A stretch of DNA of 64,000 bases from a virus. The first letter of the stretch is position 1. Every line of letters starts with the position of its first letter. Location of the stretch: positions 11,120 through 75,119 of IMG/VR virus record IMGVR_UViG_3300045970_000046; one strand, given 5' to 3'. The translations under genes and the position numbers were made by a program. Under the pieces are notes generated by a model. The model worked only from the letters and a program-made list of their open reading frames with translations. It did not search any database and had not been told where the DNA came from. Shown piece by piece: positions 2,522 through 45,856 of this stretch.

Positions 2522-2749
2522 CTAGAACGGGACGATAACCATCCAGTGCTCGCAGGCGTGTACAAGCACATCGGGTGGCGGTACTACATTGAATTTGTGA
2601 CACTTTTGTATCTTCATCTCTTGCCGTTCACAGCTATTATCTCCCCAATGTTCGCAATTTAGACAGCACTTCCAGTACGAGGTCTTAACCAAACCCTGCT
2701 GGAGTACACGCTGGAGATCGTTTATAGTAGAATTAGCTTTCAAACTCAT
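2522..2749 (-). CDS. small Cys-rich protein
   Basis: CCLNCEHW...C...C; overlaps helicase end. Confidence 0.65.
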   Translation of the reverse strand: MSLKANSTINDLQRVLQQGLVKTSYWKCCLNCEHWGDNSCERQEMKIQKCHKFNVVPPPDVLVHACEHWMVIVPF

Positions 2750-5802: not shown

Positions 5803-5817
5803 TTATAACTCCGGATG

Positions 5818-5851
5818 AAAAGGGGTGGGACCAAGAATCGATCCCACCCCT
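5818..5851 (-). terminator. intrinsic terminator after the SSB gene
   Basis: 10-bp stem AGGGGTGGGA/TCCCACCCCT followed by TTTT on the minus strand. Confidence 0.7.
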
Positions 5852-5873
5852 CTATTTACTATTTGATTAACGA

Positions 5874-6638: not shown

Positions 6639-6647
6639 TACTACTCC

Positions 6648-7331
6648 TTACGGGGTGAGGATTTTGTTGAACAGCACTGTGAGGTTGGGTTCTTCTATCG
6701 GGTTCAGCGCACCACTACGGTCTTTGGATACATACTGAATATCCGGTTGAGTCTGGAGATAACGATACGTCTGATTACCACTACCTCCAATACGAAGGGC
6801 GAATACTTCGTCGAAGAAATACGGAAGGGCTGGACCAAGCTTAGCCCCCGGCATCGATGGTCCATACTGAATTACTCCCGTCATCTCGTCTTTGGCTGTC
6901 TCCATCTTAGCCGTAACACAGACGTGCTTACCGGGTAGGTCACGGAAGGCCCGAATTAACTCGGACATCTGAGGAATAATCTCCCCATACGCCTTTCGTG
7001 GATCCTTAGCACCAACTGTCTTAACTAGATTGGACAAGACCACCTCGGCCATCTCCGTAATAGAGTCGAGGCAGATAGTCCAGAACTGCTGTGCTTCCTT
7101 TGAAGACACACACCACTGATAGGCTTCGTACAGTTCGGTCAGTGTACGAATTTCGATCGCCGCAACCTTCTGTTTACGGAGTGAAAGTAACCCCTTTTCA
7201 GCTGATAGGATTACCGGGTTAGGTGCTGTAGAACAAAGAAACGTCTTACCGACACCGGAGCCTCCGAACACTAGACATTTAACACCACTAGAAGAAGAAA
7301 CCTGATCGGTCGAAGTGAGCTTAATGGTCAT
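6648..7331 (-). CDS. AAA_24 / Sak4-like ATPase recombinase
   Basis: GGSGVGKT, SAEKGLLSL, LDSITE, PYFFDEV, KDRSG. Confidence 0.88.
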   Translation of the reverse strand: MTIKLTSTDQVSSSSGVKCLVFGGSGVGKTFLCSTAPNPVILSAEKGLLSLRKQKVAAIEIRTLTELYEAYQWCVSSKEAQQFWTICLDSITEMAEVVLSNLVKTVGAKDPRKAYGEIIPQMSELIRAFRDLPGKHVCVTAKMETAKDEMTGVIQYGPSMPGAKLGPALPYFFDEVFALRIGGSGNQTYRYLQTQPDIQYVSKDRSGALNPIEEPNLTVLFNKILTP

Positions 7332-7346
7332 TTGGAGTACCGTATA

Positions 7347-7760
7347 CTACTTCACTTTGGGGGCGACTATCTCCAACGTTGGTGCTCCGTTTCGGATGAT
7401 GAGGCACTGATCGAAGATTAACCGAGCAGCGTCAGATAACTCGCGGTAGGCCTTTATGTTCACTTCAGGTACTTCGCGGATTAGTCCTTCCGTATTGAAC
7501 AACTGCTTCTGCATAGCCTCGATAACGGCTTGACGTGCAGCGGGATCAACCTTACGGTCTAACTTGTGTGTATACTTGAGGGTGTAACCTAGCGGCAAAG
7601 TAGTCTTATTGACACCTTCTTCCGGCTTAGGCCAGAAGGTAGAAGCTACCAGACGGCGTAACTCCATCTCCTGAGCAACAAGTGGCTCCATAGCCTGTTT
7701 CATAGCATCTAGGTCATTTCGGGCCGCGTACCACATATTCAATAGTTCATCATTCGTCAT
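7347..7760 (-). CDS. conserved hypothetical protein of the recombination module
   Basis: 137 aa, N-terminal coiled coil, adjacent to the ATPase. Confidence 0.65.
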   Translation of the reverse strand: MTNDELLNMWYAARNDLDAMKQAMEPLVAQEMELRRLVASTFWPKPEEGVNKTTLPLGYTLKYTHKLDRKVDPAARQAVIEAMQKQLFNTEGLIREVPEVNIKAYRELSDAARLIFDQCLIIRNGAPTLEIVAPKVK

Positions 7761-8141
7761 TTACTTCTCCAGATAAGCTATAGCTAGGCGTAAGATTGCG
7801 TGGTCTTCCTTGAAGAGCCCTAATCCACTATTGCAAGAATAACACAGAATGCCACGTATAGCCCCTGTTTTATGATTATGGTCTACACAAGTTTTTATTG
7901 TCGTGGAAATATCTTTTAAACAAAGGGCACATTTACTATCTTGTTGTATAATCATTCTTTCAACATCTTCAAGACTAATTCCGTAATTATACTTCAAGGC
8001 GTGACGTTTATGACGTTCTTTATTCTTAATAACCCATGATAGAGCCGCACACTTACCCGGGCAATATACGATATTGGACTTAGCCGCTTCAAATACCTCT
8101 TTACAGACAGGACACGTCTTTTTATAAATCTTCTTAACCAT
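7761..8141 (-). CDS. endonuclease VII-family HNH homing endonuclease
   Basis: YGIS...CALC...VDHNH.TG.IRGILC..CN.GLG; AT-rich; start probably MVKK at 8141. Confidence 0.88.
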   Translation of the reverse strand: MVKKIYKKTCPVCKEVFEAAKSNIVYCPGKCAALSWVIKNKERHKRHALKYNYGISLEDVERMIIQQDSKCALCLKDISTTIKTCVDHNHKTGAIRGILCYSCNSGLGLFKEDHAILRLAIAYLEK

Positions 8142-8144
8142 TAG

Positions 8145-8182
8145 AAGCCCTATATTACTACAGCCGATTTTCTGTACAAGTG
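8145..8182 (-). promoter_or_regulatory. leftward sigma70-like promoter
   Basis: CACTTGTA-N17-TAATAT-AGGGCTTC on the minus strand. Confidence 0.55.
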
Positions 8183-8242
8183 ATATTTTGTGCGCCTTTG
8201 GATCCCCGTATTGTGGGTAACTGATCCGGGGGTTCACCTTTT

Positions 8243-8280
8243 CACTTGTAAGTAAATAGGGGTGACGTATAATGGGCTTC
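8243..8280 (+). promoter_or_regulatory. rightward sigma70-like promoter
   Basis: CACTTGTA-N17-TATAAT-GGGCTTC. Confidence 0.65.
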
Positions 8281-8305
8281 ACTCTTCATAGGGAGCTTAC
8301 GTTTT

Positions 8306-8542
8306 ATGGCCAGTAAAATCGGAACATTAATGGAGGAGACAATCAGTCTTCTTCGTGAGAGAACAAAAGCCTTTCCGCATATTGCACAGGAGACTGGTAT
8401 CTCGTTCTATTGGTTGCGTAAATTCGCATACCATGAGATCGATAATCCAAGCGTAAATACCGTTCAGCAACTGTACGAGTACCTAGCCGAGCGGAAGTTG
8501 GATGTCAAGGTGGAACGTACAGGACCACGGTATGCTGAATAA
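8306..8542 (+). CDS. Cro/XRE-like HTH regulator
   Basis: IAQETGISFYWL.KF...I.NPSVNTVQ.L. Confidence 0.8.
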   Translation: MASKIGTLMEETISLLRERTKAFPHIAQETGISFYWLRKFAYHEIDNPSVNTVQQLYEYLAERKLDVKVERTGPRYAE

Positions 8543-9230
8543 TCAAAATCCTGAAAAGGTAACTAAGGATGAAGAGGGTCGGCTAGATGTACATAGTATC
8601 TTTTACACTATACAGGGCGAGGGTCCGTTTGCTGGAACACCTTCGATCTTTGTTCGGTTAGCTGGATGTAATCTTCAGTGCCCTAAATGTGATACAGAGT
8701 ATACGGATAACCGTAAGTTAATGGCTATAGAAGCTATAGGCGCCCGGCTAAACGAACTGTGGCCGCGTAGGGCCGGACAGCTTATCGTCATTACTGGCGG
8801 TGAACCATTTAGGCAGACTAATTTAGGTAACTTTGTTACATATCTACGTTCGTTAGAGTATACTGTCCAGATTGAAACTAACGGGACACTCTATGTACCG
8901 GGTCCTTGGTCTGAAACAACTATCGTCTGTAGTCCTAAGACTTCAAAGATAAACGAGTTCCTTGGTAGGTATATCAAAGCTCTTAAGTATGTTGTAGATG
9001 TAGGTGGTATAGACTCTAGAGATGGTCTACCGTTACAGGTTATGGGTCACGATAGATTACAACCTGTAGCTCGTCCACCGGCGGGGTACACAGGATTAAT
9101 CTATCTACAACCTCTTGACGAACAAGACGAAGGCCGTAATCAGCGTAACAAAGAAATAGCTATCAAGAGCTGTCTCCTATATGGTCACAGGTTGTGTCTC
9201 CAACTCCATAAAATGCTGGATTTACCGTAG
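8532..9230 (+). CDS. queE: 7-carboxy-7-deazaguanine synthase (radical SAM)
   Basis: FYTIQGEG, RLAGCNLQCPKCDT, TGGEP, IETNGT, CSPK, QLHK. Confidence 0.95.
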   Translation: MLNNQNPEKVTKDEEGRLDVHSIFYTIQGEGPFAGTPSIFVRLAGCNLQCPKCDTEYTDNRKLMAIEAIGARLNELWPRRAGQLIVITGGEPFRQTNLGNFVTYLRSLEYTVQIETNGTLYVPGPWSETTIVCSPKTSKINEFLGRYIKALKYVVDVGGIDSRDGLPLQVMGHDRLQPVARPPAGYTGLIYLQPLDEQDEGRNQRNKEIAIKSCLLYGHRLCLQLHKMLDLP

Positions 9231-9243
9231 CGAGGTTAGATTA

Positions 9244-9417
9244 ATGGACAGAGAAATGCTTGTAAAGTTTCTTGAGTTACTTGTTGACAAGGAGCGCCGT
9301 CTAGAGAAGGGCGCCAAAGACGGATTTGTGGATACTATGACGCACGGGGACCTAATGGAGATCCGGCGCTTTAAGTATCAAGTTGAAGACCTTCTTTCAG
9401 GGCGTAGGGTGGCTTAA
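9244..9417 (+). CDS. hypothetical protein within the que cluster
   Basis: GAGG RBS, stop coupled to the queC start. Confidence 0.55.
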   Translation: MDREMLVKFLELLVDKERRLEKGAKDGFVDTMTHGDLMEIRRFKYQVEDLLSGRRVA

Positions 9418-10277
9418 TGGATAACGAACGTTCTAGGACACGGGAGCACGGTGAAATGCGCGCGGTAGTCGTTCTTTCTGGTGGACAGGATTCTACAACG
9501 TGCCTTTTCTGGGCGTTAGAAAATGGGATCGATAAGGTCTACCCTGTAACCTTCGACTATAACCAACGGCATAGCCGAGAGATCGACTCAGCGCGTACAA
9601 TTGTTGATCTCGCTCGTAGGTGGTACGGCTACAATAGGGTTATGGAACATGAAGTTGTAACTCTCGGTCCTGTCCTGAAGGGAGCGTCACCCCTTGTTTC
9701 TCAGAGTAATCTCGAGCAGTACAAAGATCCAGACTCTCTACCGGGTGGACTCGAAAAGACATTCGTTCCAATGCGTAACCAGTTATTCCTCACGTTGGCA
9801 GCCAATCGTGCTGCGGTACATGGCTGTGAGGCATTGGTTACTGGCGTATGTGAAGAGGATTATGGCGGTTATCCCGACTGTCGACAAACGTTTATCCATG
9901 CACTGCAGCATGCATGCAACTTGGGTACGTTCACTGGAGAAGACGGTGCACCACAGTCACTCGCCATTCTTACGCCGCTGATGAAACTCTCTAAGGCAGC
10001 TACCGTAGCCTTAGCTATGAATCTGAACGGGTGTTACGCAGCCTTAGCCTATAGCCACACCTCGTACGATGGTCAGTATCCCCCTACAGGTCACGACCAC
10101 GCAACCCTACTCCGTGAAAAGGGTTTCCGTGACGCTAATGTACCCGATCCTCTTGTCCTGCGGGCATATCTCGAAGGTTTGATGGACCTTCCGGAGTGGT
10201 ATAGGAAGATCGCTAACCTACGGAATTTCTTCGCTATGGCAAACCTTGACTACACTACTGTAGCGGAGAAACTCTAA
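9417..10277 (+). CDS. queC: 7-cyano-7-deazaguanine synthase, variant without Zn cysteines
   Basis: SGGQDS PP-loop, YNQRH, TFVPMRN, YPDCR. Confidence 0.93.
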   Translation: MDNERSRTREHGEMRAVVVLSGGQDSTTCLFWALENGIDKVYPVTFDYNQRHSREIDSARTIVDLARRWYGYNRVMEHEVVTLGPVLKGASPLVSQSNLEQYKDPDSLPGGLEKTFVPMRNQLFLTLAANRAAVHGCEALVTGVCEEDYGGYPDCRQTFIHALQHACNLGTFTGEDGAPQSLAILTPLMKLSKAATVALAMNLNGCYAALAYSHTSYDGQYPPTGHDHATLLREKGFRDANVPDPLVLRAYLEGLMDLPEWYRKIANLRNFFAMANLDYTTVAEKL

Positions 10278-10726
10278 TGGAGCCGACGTTCGTTTACGGT
10301 GGTTATCATACGGCTACGAGGTACCATGACATTTCGTGCGGACACAGAGTCGTCGGCCATGAAGGCAAGTGCCGGTTCCTACATGGTCATAATTATCGCG
10401 TGCATTTTACTTGCCGCGCTAGAAATCTGGACAGCGTTGGCCGGGTAGTAGACTTCGGTGTTATCAAAGAAGCCTTATGCATGTGGCTAGAGGTGCATTG
10501 GGACCATAAGATGTTACTATGGGACCAAGACCAAATGTGTGCTGCGTTCGAAGTTGAGGATGTAGACTATGTTCCGGTACCGTTTAATCCAACCGCCGAG
10601 AATATGGCCGAGTATTTAGTTCGGAACGTAGCACCCGCGCAGCTTGGCGACCTAGATGTAGAATGCTTCCGCGTTACTATCGAAGAAACCTCTAAGTGCT
10701 CCGCTACCTACGAGATTCAAAAATGA
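10277..10726 (+). CDS. queD: 6-carboxytetrahydropterin synthase
   Basis: C..LHGHNY, VDFG, DHK, NPTAEN, EET. Confidence 0.93.
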   Translation: MEPTFVYGGYHTATRYHDISCGHRVVGHEGKCRFLHGHNYRVHFTCRARNLDSVGRVVDFGVIKEALCMWLEVHWDHKMLLWDQDQMCAAFEVEDVDYVPVPFNPTAENMAEYLVRNVAPAQLGDLDVECFRVTIEETSKCSATYEIQK

Positions 10727-11604
10727 TCCGGAAGATTACCAACAGCGAAGTAAATCAATTTGCCTTTATGACGGCTGTAGACATTGGCCTTAATCATACA
10801 GCCCCAAAGGTCTACCCTATTCCTCGTGGTGGTATTCCGGCAGCCTATGCGGTTAAGACGCATATGTCAGGTATGACGGTTGTAGATAGTCCTGAAGAGG
10901 CCACTATCTTTATCGACGACCTTATCGACTCTGGGGCTACGCAGGATAAGTACGCCGCGCAGTATCCGGGTAAGCCATTCTACGCATTACTAGATAAACG
11001 AACACCGTCATGGAAGCAGGTGTGGATTGTCTGGCCTTGGGAAGAGACGGCTGAGTCTTCAATTGAGGATAATATTCTCCGACTACTTGAGTATGTTGGA
11101 GAGGACGTTAGTCGTGAAGGTCTTAAGGAGACTCCTAAACGTGTTGCTAAGGCGTGGAGGGAGTGGTGCTCTGGTTACTTCCAGAAGCCGGAAGATATCT
11201 TAAAAACCTTTATCGACGGAGCTGATGGTTGTGACGAGATGGTAATTCAGAAGGACATTCCCTTCTACTCGCACTGTGAACACCATCTAGCTCCGTTCTT
11301 CGGAACCGTAACTATCGCCTATATCCCGAGCGGTAAGATCGTAGGTCTGTCTAAGCTGGCTAGGTTGTCTGACATCTACGCCAAGCGGTTACAGGTTCAG
11401 GAACGGTATACCAATCAGATCGCCAACGCCCTAATGGATAATCTACAGCCTAAGGGTGTCGGAGTAGTCGTTAGGGCGCGCCACCTCTGCATCGAGTCCC
11501 GAGGTGTGGACAAGCAGGGTCACTACACAGTCACCAGTGCGTTACGCGGAGTAATGCGTAGCCTTCCGGAGGCTAGGGCCGAGTTTCTCTCCCTAGCGAG
11601 ATAG
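10723..11604 (+). CDS. folE: type I phosphoribosyltransferase - GTP cyclohydrolase I fusion
   Basis: N-terminal IPRGG, IDDLIDSGAT, WIVWPWE; C-terminal REGLKETPKRV, CEHH, GLSKL, RLQVQE, HLC..RG. Confidence 0.92.
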   Translation: MIRKITNSEVNQFAFMTAVDIGLNHTAPKVYPIPRGGIPAAYAVKTHMSGMTVVDSPEEATIFIDDLIDSGATQDKYAAQYPGKPFYALLDKRTPSWKQVWIVWPWEETAESSIEDNILRLLEYVGEDVSREGLKETPKRVAKAWREWCSGYFQKPEDILKTFIDGADGCDEMVIQKDIPFYSHCEHHLAPFFGTVTIAYIPSGKIVGLSKLARLSDIYAKRLQVQERYTNQIANALMDNLQPKGVGVVVRARHLCIESRGVDKQGHYTVTSALRGVMRSLPEARAEFLSLAR

Positions 11605-12611
11605 TGCGCCTATTCCTAGCTGCTTGTTATACTTCGAACTTCGGTAAAGTCGGTACGATTTATTCGAAGCTTACGGACGGTGAGAAGTATCACCGTGACA
11701 TCTATAAGAATATCCTCGAGTCGTATCACTATATCCACAAAGAGAGTTACGTCGAAAAGATTAAGACCGATAAGCAAACCGTGTTCCTAGACTCTGGTGC
11801 GTTCTCCGCCTTTACTAAGGGTGTCGAGATCGATATACCTGAGTATTGCGACTATGTAAAACGGAACAAGGATATTATCGAGGAGGTACCTGTAGACTTT
11901 CACGGGTGGAAGGGTAATGTTCAGCTCTTCTCCGTACTCGACTGTATTGGTGACAAAGAGAAGGGTGCCGGTACTCTCCGTAATCAACAGAAGATGGAGA
12001 AGCTCGGAGTATTCCCCCTACCCTGCTTCCACTACGGAGAAGATGAAAAGTATCTAGAACATTATATTAGAAACTATCCGTATATCACGTTAGGAGGTAT
12101 GGTTCCTATCACAACTAAACAGCTCTATCACTGGCTGGATAGGATGTGGGATAAGTACCTTACAGATGAGAACGGCGTTCCGAAGGTCAAGGTGCATGGG
12201 TTCGGCTTAACAACACTAGAACTAATGACGAGGTACCCTTGGTACTCCGTGGACTCGTCGTCGTGGGTACAGATAGCGGTTCACGGTAACATACTGATCC
12301 CCGACGGTCACCTAGACGGTGTACAGATTAACCCCAACGAGATCCACACACCCGGCGACAAAATTCTCGCGATATCGTCGGATAGTCCCCGCACCAAAGA
12401 ACAATGGGCACATTACGATACCTTACCCGAACAGATGCAACAGGCTGTTCTTAAGTGTATCAATAAGACTGGTTTCGAAGTTAACAGACTACGGACCAGT
12501 GCTTATTCCAGATGGGCGTGGAACTTCTTCGCCTTTAGAGAAATCGAAAAGCGGGTTAACGCTCACGATACTATTCATTTTAAACCCGAACAGAGATTAC
12601 TTTTCGGATGA
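11604..12611 (+). CDS. dpdA: DNA 7-deazaguanine transglycosylase (TGT fold)
   Basis: FLDSGAFS, LD.IG, P.FH.GE, LGG, HGFG, SVDSSSW; located in the que cluster. Confidence 0.85.
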   Translation: MRLFLAACYTSNFGKVGTIYSKLTDGEKYHRDIYKNILESYHYIHKESYVEKIKTDKQTVFLDSGAFSAFTKGVEIDIPEYCDYVKRNKDIIEEVPVDFHGWKGNVQLFSVLDCIGDKEKGAGTLRNQQKMEKLGVFPLPCFHYGEDEKYLEHYIRNYPYITLGGMVPITTKQLYHWLDRMWDKYLTDENGVPKVKVHGFGLTTLELMTRYPWYSVDSSSWVQIAVHGNILIPDGHLDGVQINPNEIHTPGDKILAISSDSPRTKEQWAHYDTLPEQMQQAVLKCINKTGFEVNRLRTSAYSRWAWNFFAFREIEKRVNAHDTIHFKPEQRLLFG

Positions 12612-13592: not shown

Positions 13593-14588
13593 ATGAATTT
13601 AGAGGCCCTTACCTTTGCCCAAGGTGGCGTATCACGCAAAGATTTTGTTCCCTCTTTGCAGTTCTTTAACATAGCTGATGGCCGTATTCTTGGATTTAAC
13701 GGTAATATCGCAATGAGTAGCCCTATCGACGTAGGGATCTCTTGTAATCCAAAAGCCATCCAGTTCATTAAAGCTATTAAGACTTGTCGCGACCCTCAAG
13801 TTTCTATCTGGGTAACCGCGGGTAATCGCCTCGCTATTAAGAGTGGTGGGTTCACAGGATTTGTGGACTGTATCGAAGAACACGACTTTCCCGGTATCAA
13901 ACCCGAAGGTCAGATAATCGATTTACCTACTGACGAGAACGGTCAGGGTACGTTACTTAAATCTCTTGCTATACTAGCCCCCTTTATCGCAGCAGATGCT
14001 TCACGTTCATGGGCCCGTGGTATTCTATTTCGTGGTCGCTCTGCGTACGCGACCAACAATATTATCTTAATCGAACGCTGGTTAGATGTACCCTTCCCGG
14101 TCGAGATTAACATACCGGAAGATACGGTCTACGAATTACTCCGTATCCGTGAAGAGCCGATCAAGTTACAAATTTGTGAGAACTCGGCTACATTCCACTA
14201 TAGGAACGATAGGTGGCTGCGGACCTGTCTGTACGCTACATCTTGGCCTAACCTAACACCTATTCTGGATAAACCCTGTAATCCGACACCGATACCGTCT
14301 GGTATGCCGTATGCACTAGACGACCTTACAATCTTTACCGATGATCTACAACGTATTTACTTTCAGAAGAACAAGATGTCCACAAAGCCGGTCGTAACTG
14401 ATACGGGGGCCTTTTTCGAAGTTGAAGGTACACCTGACACCGGTTGCTACAATCTTTCTCAGTTGAAGTTACTAATGCAAGTTGCCCATACCGTAGATTG
14501 GACGTTATTCCCTGACTCTCCTTGCTTATTCTTTGGTGACCAACTTAGAGGCGCAATCGTTGGAATGCGTGAAGCTAATGAGCTGTAA
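13593..14588 (+). CDS. phage-encoded beta sliding clamp-like protein
   Basis: 331 aa; repeated clamp-like units (GILFRG..AYATN, P.LFFG..LRG.IVGMR), upstream of the polymerase. Confidence 0.75.
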   Translation: MNLEALTFAQGGVSRKDFVPSLQFFNIADGRILGFNGNIAMSSPIDVGISCNPKAIQFIKAIKTCRDPQVSIWVTAGNRLAIKSGGFTGFVDCIEEHDFPGIKPEGQIIDLPTDENGQGTLLKSLAILAPFIAADASRSWARGILFRGRSAYATNNIILIERWLDVPFPVEINIPEDTVYELLRIREEPIKLQICENSATFHYRNDRWLRTCLYATSWPNLTPILDKPCNPTPIPSGMPYALDDLTIFTDDLQRIYFQKNKMSTKPVVTDTGAFFEVEGTPDTGCYNLSQLKLLMQVAHTVDWTLFPDSPCLFFGDQLRGAIVGMREANEL

Positions 14589-15381: not shown

Positions 15382-17493
15382 TTGTCCCGTTTCGATAGCA
15401 TTGGGATGTTCTGGGAAGATGTTCGTGTCCGTAAACGTGGAGAAAGGGCCCCAAGACAGCTAGCAGAGATTCCTACAACGAACTGGAAGCATCCCACCGA
15501 ATTTCCCAATCTATCGGCAGCGCCTGCTATTTCGTTTGACTTGGAGACTTATGACCCGGAGCTACAAGATCATGGGCCCGGATGGGGTAGAGGAAGAGGT
15601 CACATCGTCGGGTTTTCTGTCGCTGTCGAAGGTGGACATCGATGGTACTACCCTATTCGACACACAGTTAGGCCGGAAGAAAATCACCCAAATCCAGAAG
15701 GATGCCTCCTCTGGTTACGAGATACACTCGGTCGCGCGTCTCAACCGAAGATTGGGGCGAACCTTCTCTACGACGTTGGTTGGTGCCGTCAAGAGGGTAT
15801 TGAGGTCGCTGGTGACCTTGTGGACATCCAATTTGGGGAAGCGCTCTTAGACGATAGGGCCCGCGTTAACTTAGATGCGATGGCGGGTAAGTGGCTCGGT
15901 GAGTCTAAGCAGACCGATCTACTTAAGAAGTGGATCATGGACTCGTACGCACCACCTAAGGACGAGTGGCGTGGTTGTATCCACAAATCGCCACCGTCGT
16001 TGACTGGTCCTTACGGCGAAATGGACGCTGATCTACCCCTACGGATTGCACCTAAGCTTTACGACGCCCTCTGGCGCCACGGTCTGATTAATCTCTTTAG
16101 GATTGAATGTGGTCTAATTCGTATCCTAGTTGAGATGAGGTTCCGTGGTGTCTCGGTAGATGTAAACAAGGCCCAGGAGCTAAACGATAAACTCGGTATT
16201 CGTATCTTGGATGAAACCGCACAGTTACGCGAAGCTACAGGTGTTGATGTCAACGTAAATGCTTCGGCTAGTATAGCTAAGGTCTTTGATAAGTTAGGTC
16301 TTAAGTATCCTAGAACAGCATCTTCGAAACAACACCCGAAGGGTCAACCAAGCTTCCGTAAAGAGTTCTTAGAAACAGTAGACCATCCGTCTATTGCCCT
16401 GATCCGTAACATCCGCCGTCTACATAAACTCAAAGATACTTTCATCGAGGGGTACATACTCAATGGACACGTCAACGGTAAGCTTTATTGTTCATTTCAT
16501 CCTCTCCGAGGAGAGGGTGGAGGTACTATCGTTGGACGGTTCTCGTCCTCCGACCCTAATCTGCAAAATATCCCAATTAGGGATAAAGAACTTGGTAAAC
16601 CGATACGTTCGATCTTTAAACCGGACGAAGGTCACAAGCAGTGGCGCAAATACGACTACTCGCAATTCCAGTTTAGGGCGCTCGTCCACTACGCCCAAGG
16701 CCCGGGGGCGGAAGAAGCGCGGATGAAGTATCGTAACGATCCCACAACCGACTATCACAACATGGTTAAGGCGACAGTCGACGCCATGACCGGTCAGACG
16801 TGGGATCGTAGACCTATCAAGAATCTTAACTTCGGTCTAGCCTTCGGAATGGGTAACGAGAAGGCTGGTCGTTCGACAGGCCTATCAGGTAAGAAGCTTG
16901 TAGAGTTTATTGCCGCGTACCACAAAGCTGTTCCATTCTCTAAACAGACAATGCGTTGGGTCATGGAACTAGCTGAAACCGATGGAATGGTTCCAACCAT
17001 CTTAGGTCGCCAGGCTAAATATGACTTATGGGAGAAAGATGTACCGTGGGGTCAAGGAGAAGAGCTTAATCCCAAGACAGGGAAGCCTTATCCTCCTCTA
17101 CCTTACGATTTGGCTATTCGCTCTTATGGGCGCGTTCGCCGAGCTTATCTTCACACGGCCCTAGCCAAACTACTCCAGGGTACGGAAGGAGATACAATTA
17201 AGTCGGCTATGTATAAGTGCTGGACAGAAGGTGTCTACGCCTATACGGGTGTCCCACGACTAATTGTACACGACGAAGAAGACTTCTCCGACCCGGGCGA
17301 CATTCCAGAAGATGCTTGGTCTCATATGAGGCATATCATGGAAACAGCCCTACCGTTGAAAGTTCCCGTGATGTGTGGGTGTGACATCGGACCTAACTGG
17401 GGTACGACCAAAGAAACGTGCCATACCTGTGGCCACTTCTTAGCGGACGGTGAAGAATTCTTCTGTGTGAACTGTAAACCCACGAAACAGTAA
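15382..17493 (+). CDS. family A DNA polymerase with 3'-5' exonuclease
   Basis: DLET/NLLYD/Y..D exonuclease motifs, GRFSS.DPNLQNIP, DYSQ, K..NFG, VHDE; AGGAG RBS with TTG start. Confidence 0.95.
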   Translation: MSRFDSIGMFWEDVRVRKRGERAPRQLAEIPTTNWKHPTEFPNLSAAPAISFDLETYDPELQDHGPGWGRGRGHIVGFSVAVEGGHRWYYPIRHTVRPEENHPNPEGCLLWLRDTLGRASQPKIGANLLYDVGWCRQEGIEVAGDLVDIQFGEALLDDRARVNLDAMAGKWLGESKQTDLLKKWIMDSYAPPKDEWRGCIHKSPPSLTGPYGEMDADLPLRIAPKLYDALWRHGLINLFRIECGLIRILVEMRFRGVSVDVNKAQELNDKLGIRILDETAQLREATGVDVNVNASASIAKVFDKLGLKYPRTASSKQHPKGQPSFRKEFLETVDHPSIALIRNIRRLHKLKDTFIEGYILNGHVNGKLYCSFHPLRGEGGGTIVGRFSSSDPNLQNIPIRDKELGKPIRSIFKPDEGHKQWRKYDYSQFQFRALVHYAQGPGAEEARMKYRNDPTTDYHNMVKATVDAMTGQTWDRRPIKNLNFGLAFGMGNEKAGRSTGLSGKKLVEFIAAYHKAVPFSKQTMRWVMELAETDGMVPTILGRQAKYDLWEKDVPWGQGEELNPKTGKPYPPLPYDLAIRSYGRVRRAYLHTALAKLLQGTEGDTIKSAMYKCWTEGVYAYTGVPRLIVHDEEDFSDPGDIPEDAWSHMRHIMETALPLKVPVMCGCDIGPNWGTTKETCHTCGHFLADGEEFFCVNCKPTKQ

Positions 17494-37799: not shown

Positions 37800-38162
37800 T
37801 TAGGAAACGATAGCTAAAGTAGCCTTAACAAGATACTGATCTCCGTGAATCTCCGCCAACTTCATCGTACCTTTTACGAATTGTACAGTATGCTCAGATA
37901 TTGTAGGATCGTCTACCAATAAATTGATCCGAAAAGCTGATGCCGTAAACTGGACTAACCTATAAAACGCACGAATATAATCGTATTCTTGAGCATTACA
38001 ATACCATGTAACGTCAATATGAGGCAATGTTTTATTTATAGGCTTAATTGAAGCCCTCCGGAATTTAGAGAAGCCTCCTTCAACAGCGAACTTTATTACA
38101 TCAGCCTCAAATGTAATCCTATAACCTGATTCTTCCGGTGTAAGGTCTAGGGCTATAGACAT
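37800..38162 (-). CDS. distal tail (Dit / gpM-like) protein
   Basis: directly after the tape measure; GY...GG.S.FRR...V.W...F.I.L. Confidence 0.7.
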   Translation of the reverse strand: MSIALDLTPEESGYRITFEADVIKFAVEGGFSKFRRASIKPINKTLPHIDVTWYCNAQEYDYIRAFYRLVQFTASAFRINLLVDDPTISEHTVQFVKGTMKLAEIHGDQYLVKATLAIVS

Positions 38163-41100
38163 TAGCGCTTCCGTCCAGTCGTAGTATGCGACGAGAGGGC
38201 CTTACTGACTCGACTATTAGCGTTTATAATATCTCTGGCCACAATGCTAGGTGTATGCGTCTGGACGGCGGCCAGGGCCTCTTCGCGGGCGATAATCCGA
38301 ATATCGTTCCCATTACGTTCAACACTGATATTGGAAGGTGTGTAATTCTCAATTTTCACGTTAACTTGGGTTCCGCTGGCGCCCGCCTTACCGGGGGATC
38401 CCCCACCACCCGCACCAGAGGACCCCCTATTTAGAGCCTCTAGCATTGGACGGTAGCGCCGGGTAGCCTCGGCATTAACAACATACTCCTGCCCATGGAC
38501 TAGTCCAGCTACTTCACCTGTAGGACCATCACCGGTGTAGCCACCGACCATATAACCGGTAGAGATAAGATCACGCTTTACCGTAGAAGTTGTATCTAGA
38601 GCTTGGTAAGTAGACTTATTCTGGAATGTCGAATTAGTAGACGAGCTATACGACCTGAACATCTCGGGTGTAATGGTCTTGCCCTTGTTTAGATCTTCTA
38701 AGAGAGGGCGGTTCTTTTTAGTAGCGGTGGCGTTAAGTACATACTCCTGACCGTGATAGAAGCCCGCTACACTATTAACGGGACTATCACCGGTGTAACC
38801 GCCAGACTTCATTCCAGCCCCACCGATAGCTGCTGCGATAGCCGCGGTAGAGAGCATCGATGCGTCAGCCGCTAGACCAGCCGCGCCGAAGGTCGCGATA
38901 CTCACAAGAGCTGCCGGTCCTGCCCACATGGCCCCCGTTTCGGCGGCCATGGTAGCTCCGGCTGCCGTTGCGGTCGCCATACCCATAGTGGCTATAGCCC
39001 TGTTAACGAGGAATTGTAGGCCAATCTTAATTAAGGAGCTAAGTAATTCGGCTAGGATATTACGAGATATATCACCTAACGTCTTTTCTAGGTTTTCACC
39101 GAATACAATAGCTCTTGCGAACGCCGTACCAATACCATCTATTAACTGTGTGACGGGTTTCGCAAAGGTGGAGCCTAACTGACGGGCGAAGTCAGTGGTA
39201 CGTCGGCTAAGTAGGTCGATCTGTTTAAGCATACCGTCGAAGAAGGTACCTTCTCCGGACTGTATATTAGCTTCCGCTTGTAAATCGCGGAGGTCCATCT
39301 TAACACTCTGTATCCCAGATTCCACCGCTCCCCAATCCGTTTGACCAAAGATTGGAGTAGCATACGTATTTCCGGTTTCCCAGTCGCTAACCGGATTCAC
39401 GTGACCAATTACAGGGGTGTTATCTTTAATCAACTGAGCTGTAGACTTCTCTAACACTTCTTTGTTAACCTGTTCTTGGACCTTAGGCTTTTCGGCACGA
39501 CGATTAATCGTACTATAGAGACGGTCTACTTCCTGTGCTATACGCTTATACTCGGCCCTCTCTTCCTGTAGTTTATTAATACGAGACTGGGCTGCAAGCT
39601 CATTAGTTGTAGGTACGTGGCCAAGCTCCCGTTTAAGTTTAAGCTCATCCTCCATAGCTTGAAGTAAGCCCTTACGGGCTGCGGAGGACCCCTTGTAAAT
39701 ACTAATCTCGCGTTCAAGAGCGGCTTCTAATGTCTCAAGTGGGAATAGGGCTTCCTTAGAATGTTCCACATAAGCGGCGAGTAACCTGTTACGCTCTGCC
39801 ATCGTAATAAGCGTCTCTTGTGTAACAGTACCGTCAGGTTGCACAACAGGGGCGGCGACCGGCAGGGCTGCAGAGGCGTCTAATAATCCCTTAGCTTGGT
39901 CTAGGCGGATCTGAGCTGCAAAGACAGGACTCATCTGTTTCTGAATCTCTTCTAGGCCGCGCTTGTATTCTTCAATCTTGCCTTTGTCTAAAGCAAAGAT
40001 GGGTTTCTTGGCATCTTTACTGATATCGTCCTTAGTCCCCTTATTAGCGGCGTCTGTACGGGCTTTAGCCGTCTCCCGGAACTTAGAAATAAGCCCATCT
40101 AACTGGGACATTACGCCATCGGTCCAATCCCCAATACGATCACCACTGAAGGACCAAGTCTTTAACTTCTCCATATCAGCTAAGAGTTTATCGAACGAAC
40201 CCTTAGCATTATTTTCTACTTCAAACTTAACTGGAGTAATGGTTGCCGTAGTGCCAAAGAGTTTCTTAAAGATAGCACTTTGGGCTACAGAGTTTAGCCC
40301 ATCTATAAGTGTATTTATGATAGGAGCGGCTAACTGGGCTAGGCCGCTAAGAGCTTGTGAGAAGATATCCGTGAGTACACTAGGTATGCTACGGAGTAGT
40401 AGAGGAATAAGATTAGCTACATAGTCTACACTACCCAGAATACCATTCAGGATCCCCTTAAAGATTGTTATCGTCGCCTTTGTAATCCATTCAAAGAGGC
40501 TATAAATCTTACGTTCAATAAAGACGAGTAGTTTATCCCAACCGCTCAAGGCCTCTATAGGATCGATACCCTGAGGCTTATGCGACGACATACTAGATGT
40601 TACAGAAGAGGCCTGAGGAGAAGAGGCTAGTGAAGCTCCGCTGCCCGGGGCCTGTCCTTGGACTAGAGTAGATTGTACCGTCTTAGCTATTGTATTCTGA
40701 AGAGTAGAACCGCTCGTAGGACTAGTATTATCCTTGAAAACGTCAGTCTTATAACCGGCCCTCTTATTTAGATCGCGTGTAATTAAGGCGATATAAAGCT
40801 TAGTTTCATCGGCTAATTGATCGAAGACGGTAGTTAGATCCTTAGTCTTATCTAAGAGTTTTCCACCGTTAACTTTATCGGCCCGGTTAGGTCCGCCGTT
40901 ATAACCAGCTAGGGCTTTCTCTACACTACCATCGAATTTATTTAATAGCTCACGGAGGTAAGACGTACCTCCTTCGATATTATTCTTTGGAACATTTGGG
41001 TTAACACCCAAATCCGCAGCAGTCTTTGGCATCAGCTGCATTAAGCCAATCGCTCCAACAGGTGAAAGAGCGTTTGGATTATTATTAGACTCCTGCTTCA

Positions 41101-44100
41101 TTACGGCCGCTATAAGATGTACGCTTACATCGAACTGCTTAGCCGCATCGATAATATCCTTACCGTAAGGATGACTCGTCATCGAGGCGTCGTCTTTAGG
41201 ATTATAGCCCCAAGCTACTCCCTCTTCAGAACGCGGAACAACCGACGGTACCTGTAACGCGGTGGCCACAGGCTCCGGGGCGCCGAATCCGAGCTTCTGT
41301 AAGAAGGGGAACGTATCGGATACAATCTTACCGAGTGTCCTAAATACGTCACCTAGTGTAATCCCGGCTACTTCGATATTATCCCTAAAGAGGTATAGAC
41401 CTGCGGTCAAAGCCGCTAAAGCAGCTACACTAACACCTAGCGGGTTAGCGGACATAAAGCCAAGCATACCGGAACCGACGGCTCCACCGGCTGCAGCCCC
41501 CACCGCCCCTCTAGTCGCGACTCCACCAGCCGCTGTAAGCGGTGTAACGCCCCATGCCGGTAGAGCAGAAACGGCAGCACCCTGCGCTGTTTGACCAATC
41601 AGTTTAGATATACCAGAAAGGGCCGCGGGAATGGCTAATGCGGCTAGTGCGGCGGCTACCGTACCTAGACTGGCCGCTAGTTTATCGAGGTTACCGCCTA
41701 ACCAATCGATCATCGTATTAAACTTATCGGAAATCTTATAAGCTTCGTTAATCTCTCCTACGAATTTAGTAACATTCGTAGATAGGTTGTTAAAGCCTTG
41801 AGCGAACGATCTCTGAACGGTGTCGACTTCTTTATCAAGTTGACTTGTATCTGCCAAGAAAGCCTTAAACACTACCGACGAATCGATAGTTTCTTCTTCC
41901 TTACCCTTAATAAGCTGCTTCCAGTTTAGACCACCACCACGACGATTCTGTTCTTCTACGGCCTTACGAAACATCACAATAGACTTACTACCACCCTGTA
42001 GATGATCGGCTATACCCTTTAAGATTCTAGGTGTATTTTCTGAAATCGAGTTAAACTCCTGCATACGAATCTTACCCATACCTAGCATCTGACCTAACTG
42101 TAAGAGGGAACCTCTCGCAGCGTCAGCACTGGTACCTTGAATGAGTAAGGCTTTACCGACGTTCTCTACAAATTGGATGGCCGTAGCTTGTGAAGCGCCA
42201 ACGGTTAGGGAGGCCATAGAGATACGACGGTAGAGTGTAACGACGTCGTCAAACGGTTGACGAGTACGTAAAGCGACTTGGACTAGTTCTTCCTGGACAG
42301 CCGTAGCCTCTTTAACACTTGAGGTTGAAAGTCGGACGCTGTTACTGGCGTTAATCCAACCGTCAGCCGATTGCTTTAACTCACGAATCATTAGGAAGCC
42401 CGCAAACATTTCGGCCGCCATCCGGATATACCAGAGTTGGCGAACGAAATGAGCGGCAGAACTAGTGGCCTGCTGGGCGGCCCTGGCATGAGAGTTGTAT
42501 CCGGCAGTCGTCGAAGCTAATGCCCGGCCTGTTCCGTAGATCGCGTTATTATACTGCTGGGCTGTGATTGTACCTTCCCGGTATAGACGGTTAGCGGCTT
42601 CCTGGCGAGCCGTACTAACTCCCGGCGCCGGAGAATTGTACAACGAGTTCAACTTAGCCATCTCGGCATTTAAGGCTACAACGGCCTGTCGCTCTTCGAC
42701 ACGGCTCCTAACAAGTTCCCGATTAGTATTGTTGAGAGGTTGAACTGCCTGACCCGGGGCTGTTGTAGCTTCAGCGACACGGGTATAAGCCCCTTCCATC
42801 TGGACACTACGTTGATATTCCTTATGGGAGGCTACCCCCTTAGCTAGAGCGTCACCTTCCTTATTCAAGGCGGCTACTTCACGATCTAGTTGAGCAATGT
42901 AAGCGTCGATAGAGGTAGTCGTCGCCTGTATCTCGTTTGAAAGCTTACCAGTACCGCTCATTGTAGCTTGTCCGAGTTTACCAGCCGCCGTACCAGCCCT
43001 ATCGAAATCAAGGGTTAGTTGGCCTACACCAGCAGAGGCTAGTTTGGCCGCGGTAGAGATAGTCTTAACTTCGGTGGCCACAGTACCGGCGCGAGAAGCG
43101 GCCTCTTGTAGGAAACGTTCCTGCCGGGCGGAGTCTTCCAACCATGTTACGCCGGTCGACTTATCTGTAAAGTCAAGTTGACGGGTAGTAAGTTCTTCTT
43201 TAGTCTGACCCTTCAAAGCTTGCTTATCAGCACCGGGAGCCGTCAGATTAAGACTCATCTGGGCTTTAGTTTGCGCCGCGGCTAGTTCTTCAGTAGCCTT
43301 CGTCTTCTCACGTAAGGCCCGAGCTTCCGCTAGGATACGTTGTTCCTCGATCGGAGAACCGGCAAACGCCCTACGACCAACATCACGGGAAGCTAGTTCG
43401 TCCTTAATCTCCTGATTTACATCTTTGGGCTTAGTTCCAGGGATCGTCGGAGTAGTGGGTGCGAGTCTACCACCTTGTAGATTCAACGTAAGTTGTTGAA
43501 TGTTCTCGGCAGCTTCTTTAGCCTTAAGGGCAGTACCTCCTAATTGAGCTTCCATTAGAGGCATGAAGCCTAGAGACTGTTGACCTACAGTTCCAAGCTG
43601 ACGCAGCTTAACCGAAAGTATCTCAGCCTCGTCCGTCATCCGCTTAATAGCGAAGCCACGGGAATTACGGTCTACCTCTTCGTTCCAAGGAACACCACCC
43701 GTAGCGAATTCACGCTGGGGTGGGCGCATGGCGTTAGTTGTGGCTAATTCAACTTCACGTTGCCTAACAACATCTTGATAGTGTGCTTTTGTATCCGGAG
43801 GATGAACTACTTCGGGCCGGGCAAACATATCCATTTGCCCAGTAGTACCTAAATCTTTATTAGCGACCTTTAACTGTGCCAGTAGGTCTAACTGCTTCTT
43901 AGTCTTATCCCCAAGCTGGACTAACTGGTTAGAGCACTCAGTAATAAGTGTCCTTGGTTCAACCTTAAGTAATTCCGCACGGATCTGATTTATCTTAGCT
44001 TCGTACTCCGCCATTCCTTTGTCTTTAGGAATAGGCGGAGGCTCGTCCCAAGGATCGGGAAGCTTAGGCCGAGGAACATTCGGTAGGGGTAGTTGAACAG

Positions 44101-44542
44101 GCGGTGGTACAATGACCGGGGCAGGCGCCATCTTAGCACCGAACATCTCACCCTGTTCACCCACAGCCCCCTTAAGAGTAGGGGCGGCCATCGAAGCCAG
44201 CACAGATTTAAACTGTGTGGCTAACCCCATCACACTTTCAAATTCTTTCGCCAGGCCTTCCAGGTCCTTAGTGATCTCTCCGGGGGCCTTACCCCGTAGG
44301 GAATTTAATTGATCCCGTAGTTTTCCAACCGCCGTCGAACTGGTACCTACTTGACTTGTAAGGTCGGTAAACTGTTTTCCCAGTTCCGAACCGGGCTTAA
44401 ACGAAAGGTTTTTTAGATCTCCCTGCAACTCCGATATAACCGACTGGGCCTTTTCGGCAGACTTAGCCACATCCTCGAAACTCCGCGCAACTACACGCGA
44501 ACCAGTTTCGGATATGGATATAAGAATTGTTTCGTCGGCCAT
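38162..44542 (-). CDS. tape measure protein with SLT lytic transglycosylase domain
   Basis: LLQLGQ...EFNSI.EN.P tape-measure motif; QES...SPVGAIGLMQLMP..A, YNGGP; duplicated GGYTGD...HGQEYV. Confidence 0.95.
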   Translation of the reverse strand: MADETILISISETGSRVVARSFEDVAKSAEKAQSVISELQGDLKNLSFKPGSELGKQFTDLTSQVGTSSTAVGKLRDQLNSLRGKAPGEITKDLEGLAKEFESVMGLATQFKSVLASMAAPTLKGAVGEQGEMFGAKMAPAPVIVPPPVQLPLPNVPRPKLPDPWDEPPPIPKDKGMAEYEAKINQIRAELLKVEPRTLITECSNQLVQLGDKTKKQLDLLAQLKVANKDLGTTGQMDMFARPEVVHPPDTKAHYQDVVRQREVELATTNAMRPPQREFATGGVPWNEEVDRNSRGFAIKRMTDEAEILSVKLRQLGTVGQQSLGFMPLMEAQLGGTALKAKEAAENIQQLTLNLQGGRLAPTTPTIPGTKPKDVNQEIKDELASRDVGRRAFAGSPIEEQRILAEARALREKTKATEELAAAQTKAQMSLNLTAPGADKQALKGQTKEELTTRQLDFTDKSTGVTWLEDSARQERFLQEAASRAGTVATEVKTISTAAKLASAGVGQLTLDFDRAGTAAGKLGQATMSGTGKLSNEIQATTTSIDAYIAQLDREVAALNKEGDALAKGVASHKEYQRSVQMEGAYTRVAEATTAPGQAVQPLNNTNRELVRSRVEERQAVVALNAEMAKLNSLYNSPAPGVSTARQEAANRLYREGTITAQQYNNAIYGTGRALASTTAGYNSHARAAQQATSSAAHFVRQLWYIRMAAEMFAGFLMIRELKQSADGWINASNSVRLSTSSVKEATAVQEELVQVALRTRQPFDDVVTLYRRISMASLTVGASQATAIQFVENVGKALLIQGTSADAARGSLLQLGQMLGMGKIRMQEFNSISENTPRILKGIADHLQGGSKSIVMFRKAVEEQNRRGGGLNWKQLIKGKEEETIDSSVVFKAFLADTSQLDKEVDTVQRSFAQGFNNLSTNVTKFVGEINEAYKISDKFNTMIDWLGGNLDKLAASLGTVAAALAALAIPAALSGISKLIGQTAQGAAVSALPAWGVTPLTAAGGVATRGAVGAAAGGAVGSGMLGFMSANPLGVSVAALAALTAGLYLFRDNIEVAGITLGDVFRTLGKIVSDTFPFLQKLGFGAPEPVATALQVPSVVPRSEEGVAWGYNPKDDASMTSHPYGKDIIDAAKQFDVSVHLIAAVMKQESNNNPNALSPVGAIGLMQLMPKTAADLGVNPNVPKNNIEGGTSYLRELLNKFDGSVEKALAGYNGGPNRADKVNGGKLLDKTKDLTTVFDQLADETKLYIALITRDLNKRAGYKTDVFKDNTSPTSGSTLQNTIAKTVQSTLVQGQAPGSGASLASSPQASSVTSSMSSHKPQGIDPIEALSGWDKLLVFIERKIYSLFEWITKATITIFKGILNGILGSVDYVANLIPLLLRSIPSVLTDIFSQALSGLAQLAAPIINTLIDGLNSVAQSAIFKKLFGTTATITPVKFEVENNAKGSFDKLLADMEKLKTWSFSGDRIGDWTDGVMSQLDGLISKFRETAKARTDAANKGTKDDISKDAKKPIFALDKGKIEEYKRGLEEIQKQMSPVFAAQIRLDQAKGLLDASAALPVAAPVVQPDGTVTQETLITMAERNRLLAAYVEHSKEALFPLETLEAALEREISIYKGSSAARKGLLQAMEDELKLKRELGHVPTTNELAAQSRINKLQEERAEYKRIAQEVDRLYSTINRRAEKPKVQEQVNKEVLEKSTAQLIKDNTPVIGHVNPVSDWETGNTYATPIFGQTDWGAVESGIQSVKMDLRDLQAEANIQSGEGTFFDGMLKQIDLLSRRTTDFARQLGSTFAKPVTQLIDGIGTAFARAIVFGENLEKTLGDISRNILAELLSSLIKIGLQFLVNRAIATMGMATATAAGATMAAETGAMWAGPAALVSIATFGAAGLAADASMLSTAAIAAAIGGAGMKSGGYTGDSPVNSVAGFYHGQEYVLNATATKKNRPLLEDLNKGKTITPEMFRSYSSSTNSTFQNKSTYQALDTTSTVKRDLISTGYMVGGYTGDGPTGEVAGLVHGQEYVVNAEATRRYRPMLEALNRGSSGAGGGGSPGKAGASGTQVNVKIENYTPSNISVERNGNDIRIIAREEALAAVQTHTPSIVARDIINANSRVSKALSSHTTTGRKR

Positions 44543-44552: not shown

Positions 44553-45101
44553 TTAACGGCGGCCGCGTTTGCGGCTCGATGCTTTCGTCGGAGGCTTTAA
44601 GCCGAGGGCTTGGATAGGCGCGTCAGCTCCAAGACGTTCCGCACCGACACCCATGATCAAACTGCTCTGGCCCTTCTTACGACTACGAATAGCTTCACGG
44701 GCGTTCATCATCGCCGATTCTATGAAACCTGGAGGAGCTTGTGCTGAAGGTCTATTCGTATTAAGGTATTTGATATAGGGAGCATTATTCGTAATATAGA
44801 GTATACCGAAGCCTACGTATTTCGCAATGGTGCTATAACCCTCACTTAGAGCCTCAGAACCTCCCGCAGAACGAGAAGCTGGCTTTAAGGGCTTAGGATA
44901 TTTATACTGAGTCGGTATACTACCGAGACCAACCTGCCAGTTAGATTTAGCTCGGCTGGTGTCAACCGGTGTAGCCGTGACTAGTGTTGTAAGAACAGTT
45001 CGAGCTACGTCCTTGGTAACAGAGTCACCAAAGCGCTCGGCCCCCTTAGCATACATACGGAGCTTCTTTGCATAGTCACCAAAAGTTAGCTTATTAGCCA
45101 T
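44553..45101 (-). CDS. HK97 gp10-like tail completion protein
   Basis: TPVDT.RAK.NW, ITNNAPYI..LN, SAQAP.GF. Confidence 0.85.
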   Translation of the reverse strand: MANKLTFGDYAKKLRMYAKGAERFGDSVTKDVARTVLTTLVTATPVDTSRAKSNWQVGLGSIPTQYKYPKPLKPASRSAGGSEALSEGYSTIAKYVGFGILYITNNAPYIKYLNTNRPSAQAPPGFIESAMMNAREAIRSRKKGQSSLIMGVGAERLGADAPIQALGLKPPTKASSRKRGRR

Positions 45102-45104
45102 GAC

Positions 45105-45856
45105 CTATGCTTTAGACTCCGTCTGCTGATTCTGCCACTCGAGGTATACACCGTCTAAATGCTGGACATGAAAACTTAGATCCGCTAACTGGTCTAAATC
45201 TATATCGTAGACTTCAGCGTAACGTACGACAGCTAGCCACGGGATTGGTCCCATTCCAAACCCAATGCTACGGCAAGAAGAAAGCTCCAAGAAGGCCGTG
45301 TAGAAAAACTCTAAGCCTTCAAGGAGCTCTGGTGCATTTTTAATTCTGTCGGGTATAGGCTGCCGTGACCTATAGCACTGATCTAGTATTACTTTTTCTC
45401 TAGGTCCTAACTCAAGGGAGTAAAGGAGGACCTCGGCTAGTTTTTTGCGTCAGCCTCGAGGGCGTCAGCACGGAACAGGGCGACCTTAGCCGCACACTCG
45501 CGGATATCGGTAAATAGGTCAGGTAGATCGGTTAAGACCTTGATAATGTTCTCTTCCGTAAAGGGAAGAGCCACATTCTTACTATCCTCAACGTTTTCCC
45601 AAGCGAGGATAATAGACTTAGCGTACACCCGGCGTTGAATAGCCTGGCCAGTCTCCTCATCTAGAGTCTCCGTTTGAATCTGACGACGGAAAGCCTTAGT
45701 CTCCTTCTCGAGCACCTTAGAGAACCTGGCATTGGAACCACCGGCCCGTGCAATCTTAATACGGATCGGAAGACCCTTGCTGTTCTTACCGTACTCGAGG
45801 AAGATACCGTCCTTCTCCTGATTCTCACTGGTAGCGAATTGCTTATACAGCGACAT
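45105..45856 (-). CDS. tail assembly chaperone G/GT (short form 45437-45856; -1 frameshift extends to 45105)
   Basis: A AAA AAC slippery site at 45440-45446 before TAG; -1 frame open into GPIPW..V..YA. Confidence 0.88.

Follow-up and report, generated by a model that had tools for sequence, protein, structure and literature searches.

An array of candidate clamp-binding motifs in the N-terminal insertion of a phage tape measure protein

Results

The window analysed here, by which we mean the whole stretch of 64,000 nucleotides, covers positions 11,120 to 75,119 of the IMG/VR virus record IMGVR_UViG_3300045970_000046, a record of 75,119 bp that comes from pond metagenomes and is rated complete. 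The subject of this report is the tape measure protein (TMP) gene in this window and an array of short motifs within it, which resemble the peptides by which bacterial proteins bind the beta sliding clamp, DnaN. The gene (P0001) lies at 38162-44542 on the minus strand, is the largest in the window according to the list of open reading frames (ORFs), and translates into 2126 amino acids (aa). It lies past the tail assembly chaperone gene and ahead of the distal tail genes, and upstream of it are genes for a tail terminator, a tail tube protein of 505 aa and the chaperone itself. A Pfam search located a TMP_3 core domain (PF20155; 139.7 bits against a cut-off of 41, E 1.2e-40) at aa 721-933 (41744-42382) and an SLT lytic transglycosylase domain (E 1.1e-24) at aa 1130-1225 (40868-41155). 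Two hydrophobic, transmembrane-like segments, at aa 954-983 and 1034-1053 (41384-41683), were revealed between the core and the SLT domain by a Kyte-Doolittle scan; these features, like all parts of the gene described below, are on the minus strand. On the basis of the Pfam domains and the upstream tail genes the gene is therefore the TMP gene of a siphovirus-like phage. Between the chaperone and the TMP sits a gene of 182 aa (44553-45101 on the minus strand / 45102-45436) that matches "tail completion/Neck1" PHROGs and has the position of the "minor tail protein" of Erwinia phage AH03.

Ahead of the core, the protein consists of a head and a long insertion. The head (~aa 1-118, 44189-44542) is conserved and common to two other proteins, P0002 and P0003, as judged by BLASTP, phmmer and a three-way alignment. 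It is followed by an insertion of ~570 aa (~aa 119-690, 42473-44188) in which helices alternate with Pro/Gly linkers and which holds the motif array. No Pfam domain was found in aa 1-720. The core begins at ~aa 690 in this protein, as opposed to ~30-50 in most of 41 homologues, and in a single-sequence AlphaFold2 (AF2) model with a mean predicted local distance difference test score (pLDDT) of 53 the helices of the insertion are separated by low-confidence linkers.

Nine beta-clamp-binding-like motifs had been listed ahead of the TMP core in the initial annotation, several of them in Pro-rich linkers. All nine were found, the segment 43004-44155 corresponding exactly to aa 130-513, and several are followed by Pro/Gly-rich stretches. 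The first, QGEMF (aa 130-134, 44141-44155), is orthologous to QGDLF of P0002, and the second, QLPLP (aa 150-154, 44081-44095), aligns with QLNLF of the same protein. QLDLL (aa 217-221, 43880-43894) lies in what is predicted to be a helix and is the least convincing candidate of the series. QMDMF (aa 236-240, 43823-43837) stands at the end of a helix, ahead of a Pro-rich linker, and is the peptide that occupies the DnaN pocket in the model presented below. QQSLGF (aa 321-326, 43565-43582) may be compared with QQSLDF and QGSLGF of P0002, QLTLNL (aa 350-355, 43478-43495) is followed by a Gly/Pro/Thr linker, and QMSLNL (aa 428-433, 43244-43261) is found at a helix end. The last two are RQLDF (aa 454-458, 43169-43183), a weak variant located where disorder is predicted, and QLTLDF (aa 508-513, 43004-43021). 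The motifs recur as G-x-x-G-Q-x-[D/E/S/N]-[L/M]-F or as Q-x-[S/T]-L-x-[F/L], often at a helix end and with a Pro/Gly-rich linker after them; of the nine, the AF2 model puts five in linkers or at helix ends and the other four within low-confidence helices.

Six of the TMP motifs (QMDMF, QGEMF, QQSLGF, QLTLDF, QLTLNL and QMSLNL) fit the clamp-binding pattern, taken here as QL[S/D]LF or Qxx[L/M]x[F/L], in which Gln comes first and Leu/Met-Phe last. Among the cellular clamp motifs are QADMF of Pol III alpha, QTSMAF of epsilon, QLSLPL of Hda and QMSLL of MutS, and the hexapeptides of the TMP resemble the last three. Others are QLNLF of UmuC, QLGLF of Pol II and QLVLGL of Pol IV (PMC3716654), and the bacterial consensus is given as QL[S/D]LF, with variability accepted (PMC9690074). 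A phage protein, MuC of phage Mu, binds DnaN via QHDLF and QPDLF, and the consensus of its family is Qx[D/E][L/M]F (PMC12867686). The clamp-binding pattern applied here is drawn from these three reports. The penta- and hexapeptide patterns of the cellular clamp clients are the same as those in the TMP, the exact UmuC motif, QLNLF, is present in P0002, and the consensus of the MuC family describes QGEMF and QMDMF of the TMP, as well as QGDLF and QRDLF of P0002, exactly.

The density of these motifs is well above background, with 6 matches in the TMP against ~0.5 in shuffled sequence. Enrichment was calculated for aa 120-520, with composition-preserving shuffles as the null. In this region Q[LM]x[LM] has 6 matches where the shuffles give 0.43 (P<5e-5). 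The observed and shuffled counts are 4 and 0.06 for Q[LM]x[LM](F|x[LF]), and 6 and 0.49 for Qxx[LM](F|x[FL]). The last of these patterns has no match in the other 1606 aa of the TMP. In 63 other TMPs (84,102 aa) it is found at a mean of 0.81 per 1000 aa, with a maximum of 3 per 400-aa window, and these background matches occur in a plain coiled-coil context. The rest of the phage proteome (~18,000 aa) contains 2 matches to the stricter patterns. The array is thus 15-40 times as dense in motifs as the 63 other TMPs and the remaining proteome.

Searches with the first 700 residues of the TMP (a word-index search of 5.8 billion proteins, a scan of IMG/VR and a megablast against phages) returned the protein itself or nothing, and a protein-atlas search with the N-terminal region gave recognition below threshold. 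When 1.84 billion representatives were searched exhaustively with phmmer, a single relative of the N-terminal region emerged, P0002, aligned over aa 4-159 with an E of 1e-5. P0002 has 1702 aa, read from a contig of 9.7 kb, and is 31% identical to the TMP over aa 4-159, unalignable past ~residue 160 and 45% identical in the core. It has an N-terminal insertion of its own, its core starting from ~aa 443, and this insertion carries an array comprising QGDLF, QLNLF, QRDLF, QQSLDF, QMNLV, QLTLG, QGSLGF and others. In a pairwise alignment the first two motifs of the two proteins are positionally orthologous (QGEMF/QGDLF and QLPLP/QLNLF) and the linkers are unaligned. Self-BLAST of aa 100-700 of the TMP detected no internal repeats, even at E 50; the recurrence of the motif is therefore not due to recent duplication, and an origin of the motifs by tandem duplication was rejected. 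Such short conserved islands, here judged from two sequences, are typically left by functional short linear motifs where the surrounding sequence is non-repetitive and can no longer be aligned.

The further TMPs compared were free of the array. P0003, the next relative, has the N-terminal head and the core in common with the TMP and is without the array, and the TMP of another locus (L026) has an N-terminal extension of 456 aa in which the motifs are missing. No arrays were found in TMP_3 relatives from metagenome and IMG/VR scans in which the three-way alignment was the query, and tblastn of the motif cluster of P0002 against phages gave chance matches only (E ~1 or worse). Five large relatives that share the clamp gene described below contain no TMP_3-type TMP, and the long ORFs of three of these five contain no arrays. 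Erwinia phage AH03, with a tube protein 44% and a chaperone 46% identical to those encoded here, has a TMP of 1157 aa without the array. The array is likewise absent from Shewanella phage S0112, which has the polymerase, the clamp module and a TMP_3 TMP in common with this phage. Because the TMPs of AH03 and S0112 do without it, the array is an accessory insertion that stands outside the conserved ruler, chaperone and tube machinery. Ordinary TMPs with TMP_3 and SLT domains, such as those of AH03, S0112 and PaMx25-like Pseudomonas phages, have a homologous core, hydrophobic segments, SLT domain and C-terminal region and the same tail gene order, but their core starts from ~residue 30-50 or is preceded by Ala/Gln-rich coiled-coil extensions without motifs.

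From the narrow distribution it could be argued that the array is functionless, a by-product of Gln/Leu/Met-rich linker composition that has arisen twice, insofar as just two carriers are known, some of the motifs are degenerate and the region is fast-evolving. However, shuffles that preserve composition almost never match the observed counts (P ~5e-5 or less for P0001 and P0002 each), the motifs persist while their flanks have diverged beyond recognition, and other Gln/Ala/Leu-rich TMP extensions lack them. We regard a by-product as improbable. Our results support an array that is real, non-random and evolutionarily maintained, and that matches the bacterial clamp-binding consensus.

A complex of TMP aa 210-260 with DnaN of E. 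coli, which served as a stand-in for the host clamp, was modelled with ESMFold2. The complex reached an ipSAE of 0.68, compared to 0.00 for the best of 3 controls; the mark set for this score was attained in 51 of 78 solved complexes and in 2 of 108 mismatched pairs. Contact agreement between runs was at least 73%, and the pLDDT of the partner was at least 48. The confident interface is made by TMP residues 234-240 (TGQMDMF, holding QMDMF), which the model seats in the canonical peptide pocket of DnaN, occupying subsites 1 and 2 in silico. On the side of the clamp, residues 152, 172, 174-175, 177, 242, 247, 278, 320, 344, 346, 360 and 362-366 are contacted. The pocket residues described for the UmuC, Pol II and Pol III peptides are Arg152, Gly174, Leu177, Pro242, Val247, Val360 and Met362 (PMC3716654), all of which are included in the modelled interface. 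QLDLL (aa 217), helical and within the same modelled fragment, is not a contact site. Docking of a motif peptide into the DnaN pocket was in this way supported in silico for QMDMF, with clean controls. The pass shows likeness to a clamp ligand and not binding. It should be read with caution since complexes between clamps and peptides have been solved many times, and the pass may for that reason reflect the model's memory of solved complexes.

The phage was also said to encode a clamp-like protein of its own, and the present results agree. ORF 13593-14588 (plus strand, 331 aa), the candidate alternative receptor for the motifs, matches phrog_947 with an E of 1.9e-55, and AF2 and Foldseek concur. 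The AF2 model, built with 51 homologues, has a pLDDT of 93.1, a predicted template modelling score (pTM) of 0.89 and a three-domain beta-clamp fold, and Foldseek relates it to DnaN of E. coli, Pseudomonas and Stenotrophomonas at E 1e-19 with a template modelling (TM) score of ~0.74. The Pfam family DNA_pol3_beta had no match in the genome, though this ORF folds as a beta clamp, and its sequence gave no match in the PDB. An hhalign comparison with E. coli DnaN reached 85% probability over aa 3-228 and paired the invariant SRxWARGILF and ATNN segments of the phage protein with pocket-wall segments of the E. coli clamp; within the phage clamp family, conservation is highest in the pocket-wall segments and in the C-terminal strand. 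The protein belongs to a distant phage clade of clamps, phrog_947, with hundreds of metagenome members and relatives at 65-83% identity. Among the scanned ORFs, none was noticed that encodes a clamp loader.

Clamp-type tails are found next to this gene. A DpdA-like 7-deazaguanine DNA transglycosylase (ORF 11604-12611, plus strand) ends in QRLLFG, its C-terminal QRLLF lying at 12591-12605 on the same strand, and in seven named phages the DpdA homologue has QMELF, QRLF, QELF, MELF or QPGLF at its end. When the gene directly upstream of the phage clamp gene was compared across IMG/VR loci (the loci for these two comparisons together being L040-L046 and L051-L130), 41 of the 47 distinct C-termini had the form Q-x(1-2)-[LI]-[FY], and 24 of the 47 were exact Q..LF ends. 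Since these DpdA tails occur beside the clamp gene, the phage clamp family probably reads the same class of motif. The tail sequences also suggest that DpdA travels with a sliding clamp, that of the phage (or of the host); we found no paper linking DpdA to a sliding clamp.

The TMP motifs could then bind the phage's own clamp, acting late in infection when the TMP is abundant, or bind both clamps; DpdA or the polymerase might, for example, be competed off phage clamps. The beta-clamp fold of the ORF, the conservation of its pocket-wall segments and the predominance of DpdA-type tails would be in keeping with such a role. On the other hand, the array is missing from the TMPs of phages that have the same module of clamp, DpdA and PolA, the phage clamp is absent at ejection, and sequestering its own clamp would bring the phage no obvious benefit. 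We find this explanation distinctly unlikely.

Discussion

If host and phage receptors are counted together, we consider it somewhat more probable than its converse that the array binds a beta-type clamp. Our more specific proposal is tentative and falls a little short of an even chance. According to this proposal the TMP would be an ejected protein with a clamp-docking array of short motifs, and the clamp bound after ejection would be that of the host.

The TMP of a siphophage fills the lumen of the tail tube with its C-terminus at the tip, and is expelled ahead of the DNA. Its N-terminus therefore leaves last and adjoins the DNA end. The insertion of ~570 aa would form a hydrophilic and flexible stalk of helices and Pro/Gly linkers that displays 6-9 clamp-type motifs, and this stalk would enter the cytoplasm after the TMP has left the tail, as the precedent of phage P23-45 discussed below would imply. 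The motifs would put their Gln and their Leu/Met-Phe pair into the peptide pocket of the beta clamp. At entry this clamp can only be host DnaN, because the phage proteins have not yet been made, and timing would thus favor the host clamp at this stage. Through the multivalent array, the entry complex or the leading end of the DNA may then be tethered to clamps that are either free or left on DNA. The effect would be that the replication and repair platform is recruited to the incoming genome, or that the genome is placed beside the platform.

A different consequence of host-clamp binding had been the main reading of the initial annotation, which also named a recruiter of DnaN or a pilot of the incoming DNA. 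In that main reading the ejected multivalent TMP acts as a sponge, titrating host DnaN and stalling host replication. The number of TMP copies per virion is small, and a cell contains hundreds of clamp dimers. With ~6-9 motifs on each of a few copies, tens of motif sites would be set against hundreds of clamps, and nothing catalytic or amplifying is apparent in the sequence; the claim is therefore unlikely on stoichiometry. The 6-9 motifs do provide multivalency, the docking model with DnaN passed, and overexpression of MuC is toxic through the clamp (PMC12867686). Weighing both sides, we hold a sponge to be very improbable, and a role of the array as tether or recruiter to be more plausible than stoichiometric titration.

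Several of our observations weigh against docking of the array onto the host clamp. Support from docking is confined to one motif and to the E. coli stand-in, and ESMFold2 may seat any QxDMF-like peptide in a pocket that has been solved so often. Four of the motifs (QLDLL, QQSLGF, QLTLNL and QLTLDF) are inside predicted helices of the low-confidence single-sequence model, and QLPLP and RQLDF are weak matches to the clamp-binding consensus. As the array is carried by only two proteins, its conservation rests on one comparison, and relatives with the same replication module carry no arrays. The apparent use of Q..LF tails by the phage clamp family implies that the motifs may have a receptor other than the host clamp, and the clamp of the phage itself is just as possible a receptor. 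Finally, a simple hairpin of the two hydrophobic segments, followed by an SLT domain that acts in the periplasm, would leave the N-terminus of the TMP on the periplasmic side.

A periplasmic N-terminus would in turn favor the explanation that the motifs serve some other partner, such as the chaperone, the tube lumen, the terminator or an envelope or periplasmic host factor, and that the likeness to clamp ligands is coincidental. TMPs acquire a coat of chaperones and are threaded through the tail tube, promiscuity is a property of short hydrophobic motifs, and the N-terminal region of this TMP is an orphan. However, AH03 and S0112 have homologous tube and chaperone proteins and use TMPs without the array, and the N-terminal extensions of P0003 and L026 lack the motifs. 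Moreover, an invariant Gln combined with [LM]-F is a specific signature of clamp ligands, and the modelled docking was accompanied by controls that scored zero. A partner other than the clamp is in our judgment unlikely, albeit with appreciable weight, and an assembly role of the array is unlikely.

Clamp docking by a TMP would differ from the known uses of such motifs. In cellular clamp clients the motifs number one or two and sit on DNA enzymes, and none of these clients is a virion structural protein with an array. The MuC/Mor family of phage Mu resembles the TMP in being a non-replication phage protein with more than one Qx[D/E][L/M]F peptide, those of MuC engaging host DnaN. MuC, however, is a small transcription factor made in the cell, whereas the TMP is an ejected virion protein with 6-9 motifs per chain that is known from sequence and model. 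The SocB toxin of Caulobacter and the DnaN binders of staphylococcal phages occupy or block the clamp pocket via a clamp-binding motif. These proteins inhibit by abundance, whereas the TMP is delivered in few copies (SocB is mentioned in PMC9690074).

The TMP also shares a feature with gp96 of Thermus phage P23-45, in that both have a long extension N-terminal to the tape-measure part. The N-terminal part of gp96 is a virion RNA polymerase that transcribes pre-early genes in the cytoplasm after ejection (PMC10770324). The extension of gp96 is a folded enzyme, whereas that of the TMP appears to be a domain-less flexible stalk with docking motifs, and the two have no sequence relationship. The comparison is an analogy; the TMP would not be a member of the gp96 type, and its likeness would lie in logic alone.

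The roles of TMPs after ejection are poorly known. To our knowledge, the sole demonstrated cytoplasmic job of a TMP beyond channel formation and wall digestion is that of the fused RNA polymerase in one Thermus phage group. We found no literature report of clamp-binding motifs in a TMP or in any ejected protein. If our proposal is true, a clamp-docking array would constitute a second and very different kind of injected TMP function, DNA entry would be linked to the host replisome, and the short list of phage proteins that exploit the host clamp for purposes other than replication, on which MuC of Mu stands, would gain a virion protein. The novelty is the injected carrier, as the clamp-binding short motifs themselves are already known. 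The wider notion that some siphophages arm the head-proximal end of their TMP with multivalent clamp-binding peptides, so that what first reaches the cytoplasm together with the DNA end seizes host beta clamps and couples genome entry to the host replication and repair platform, is doubtful. If true, it would define a new class of injected "pilot" function built on short linear motifs and not on a folded domain. The DpdA tails, for their part, suggest that DNA hypermodification is coupled to replication via the clamp.

Additional observations

Besides the clamp, the phage encodes a 7-deazaguanine synthesis cluster (FolE, QueD, QueC and QueE) and a family A DNA polymerase. The region 8502-12611 on the plus strand contains a complete preQ0-type 7-deazaguanine module, consisting of a radical-SAM QueE-like protein, QueC, QueD (PTPS), FolE with a QueF-like match and then DpdA, in the order of Queuovirinae-type phages. 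The polymerase gene, in its N-terminal part at 15382-15425 on the plus strand, has a TTG start codon. A clamp contact of the polymerase through a Q-type motif was considered and rejected, as PolA is without such a motif. The N-terminal peptide of PolA, (M)sRFDxIGMFWED, is conserved in Vibrio, Pseudomonas, Shewanella and Synechococcus phages (L047-L050), all with the clamp gene just upstream. On this sequence pattern, RFDxIGMFWED may be the clamp-contact peptide of the polymerase, distinct from the Q-type motif. At its other end PolA has a C-terminal extension of ~30 aa (17410-17493, plus strand) with four Cys plus His residues (C-H-T-C-G-H ... C-V-N-C) that resembles a small zinc ribbon and is absent from four compared homologues. 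A search of the phage for tRNA genes found none. The minus strand at 4505-8282 carries a recombination module with a Cas4-domain exonuclease, a single-stranded DNA-binding protein (SSB), a Sak4-like annealing protein and endonuclease VII, and a DEAD/ResIII helicase at 2733-4502 adjoins this module.

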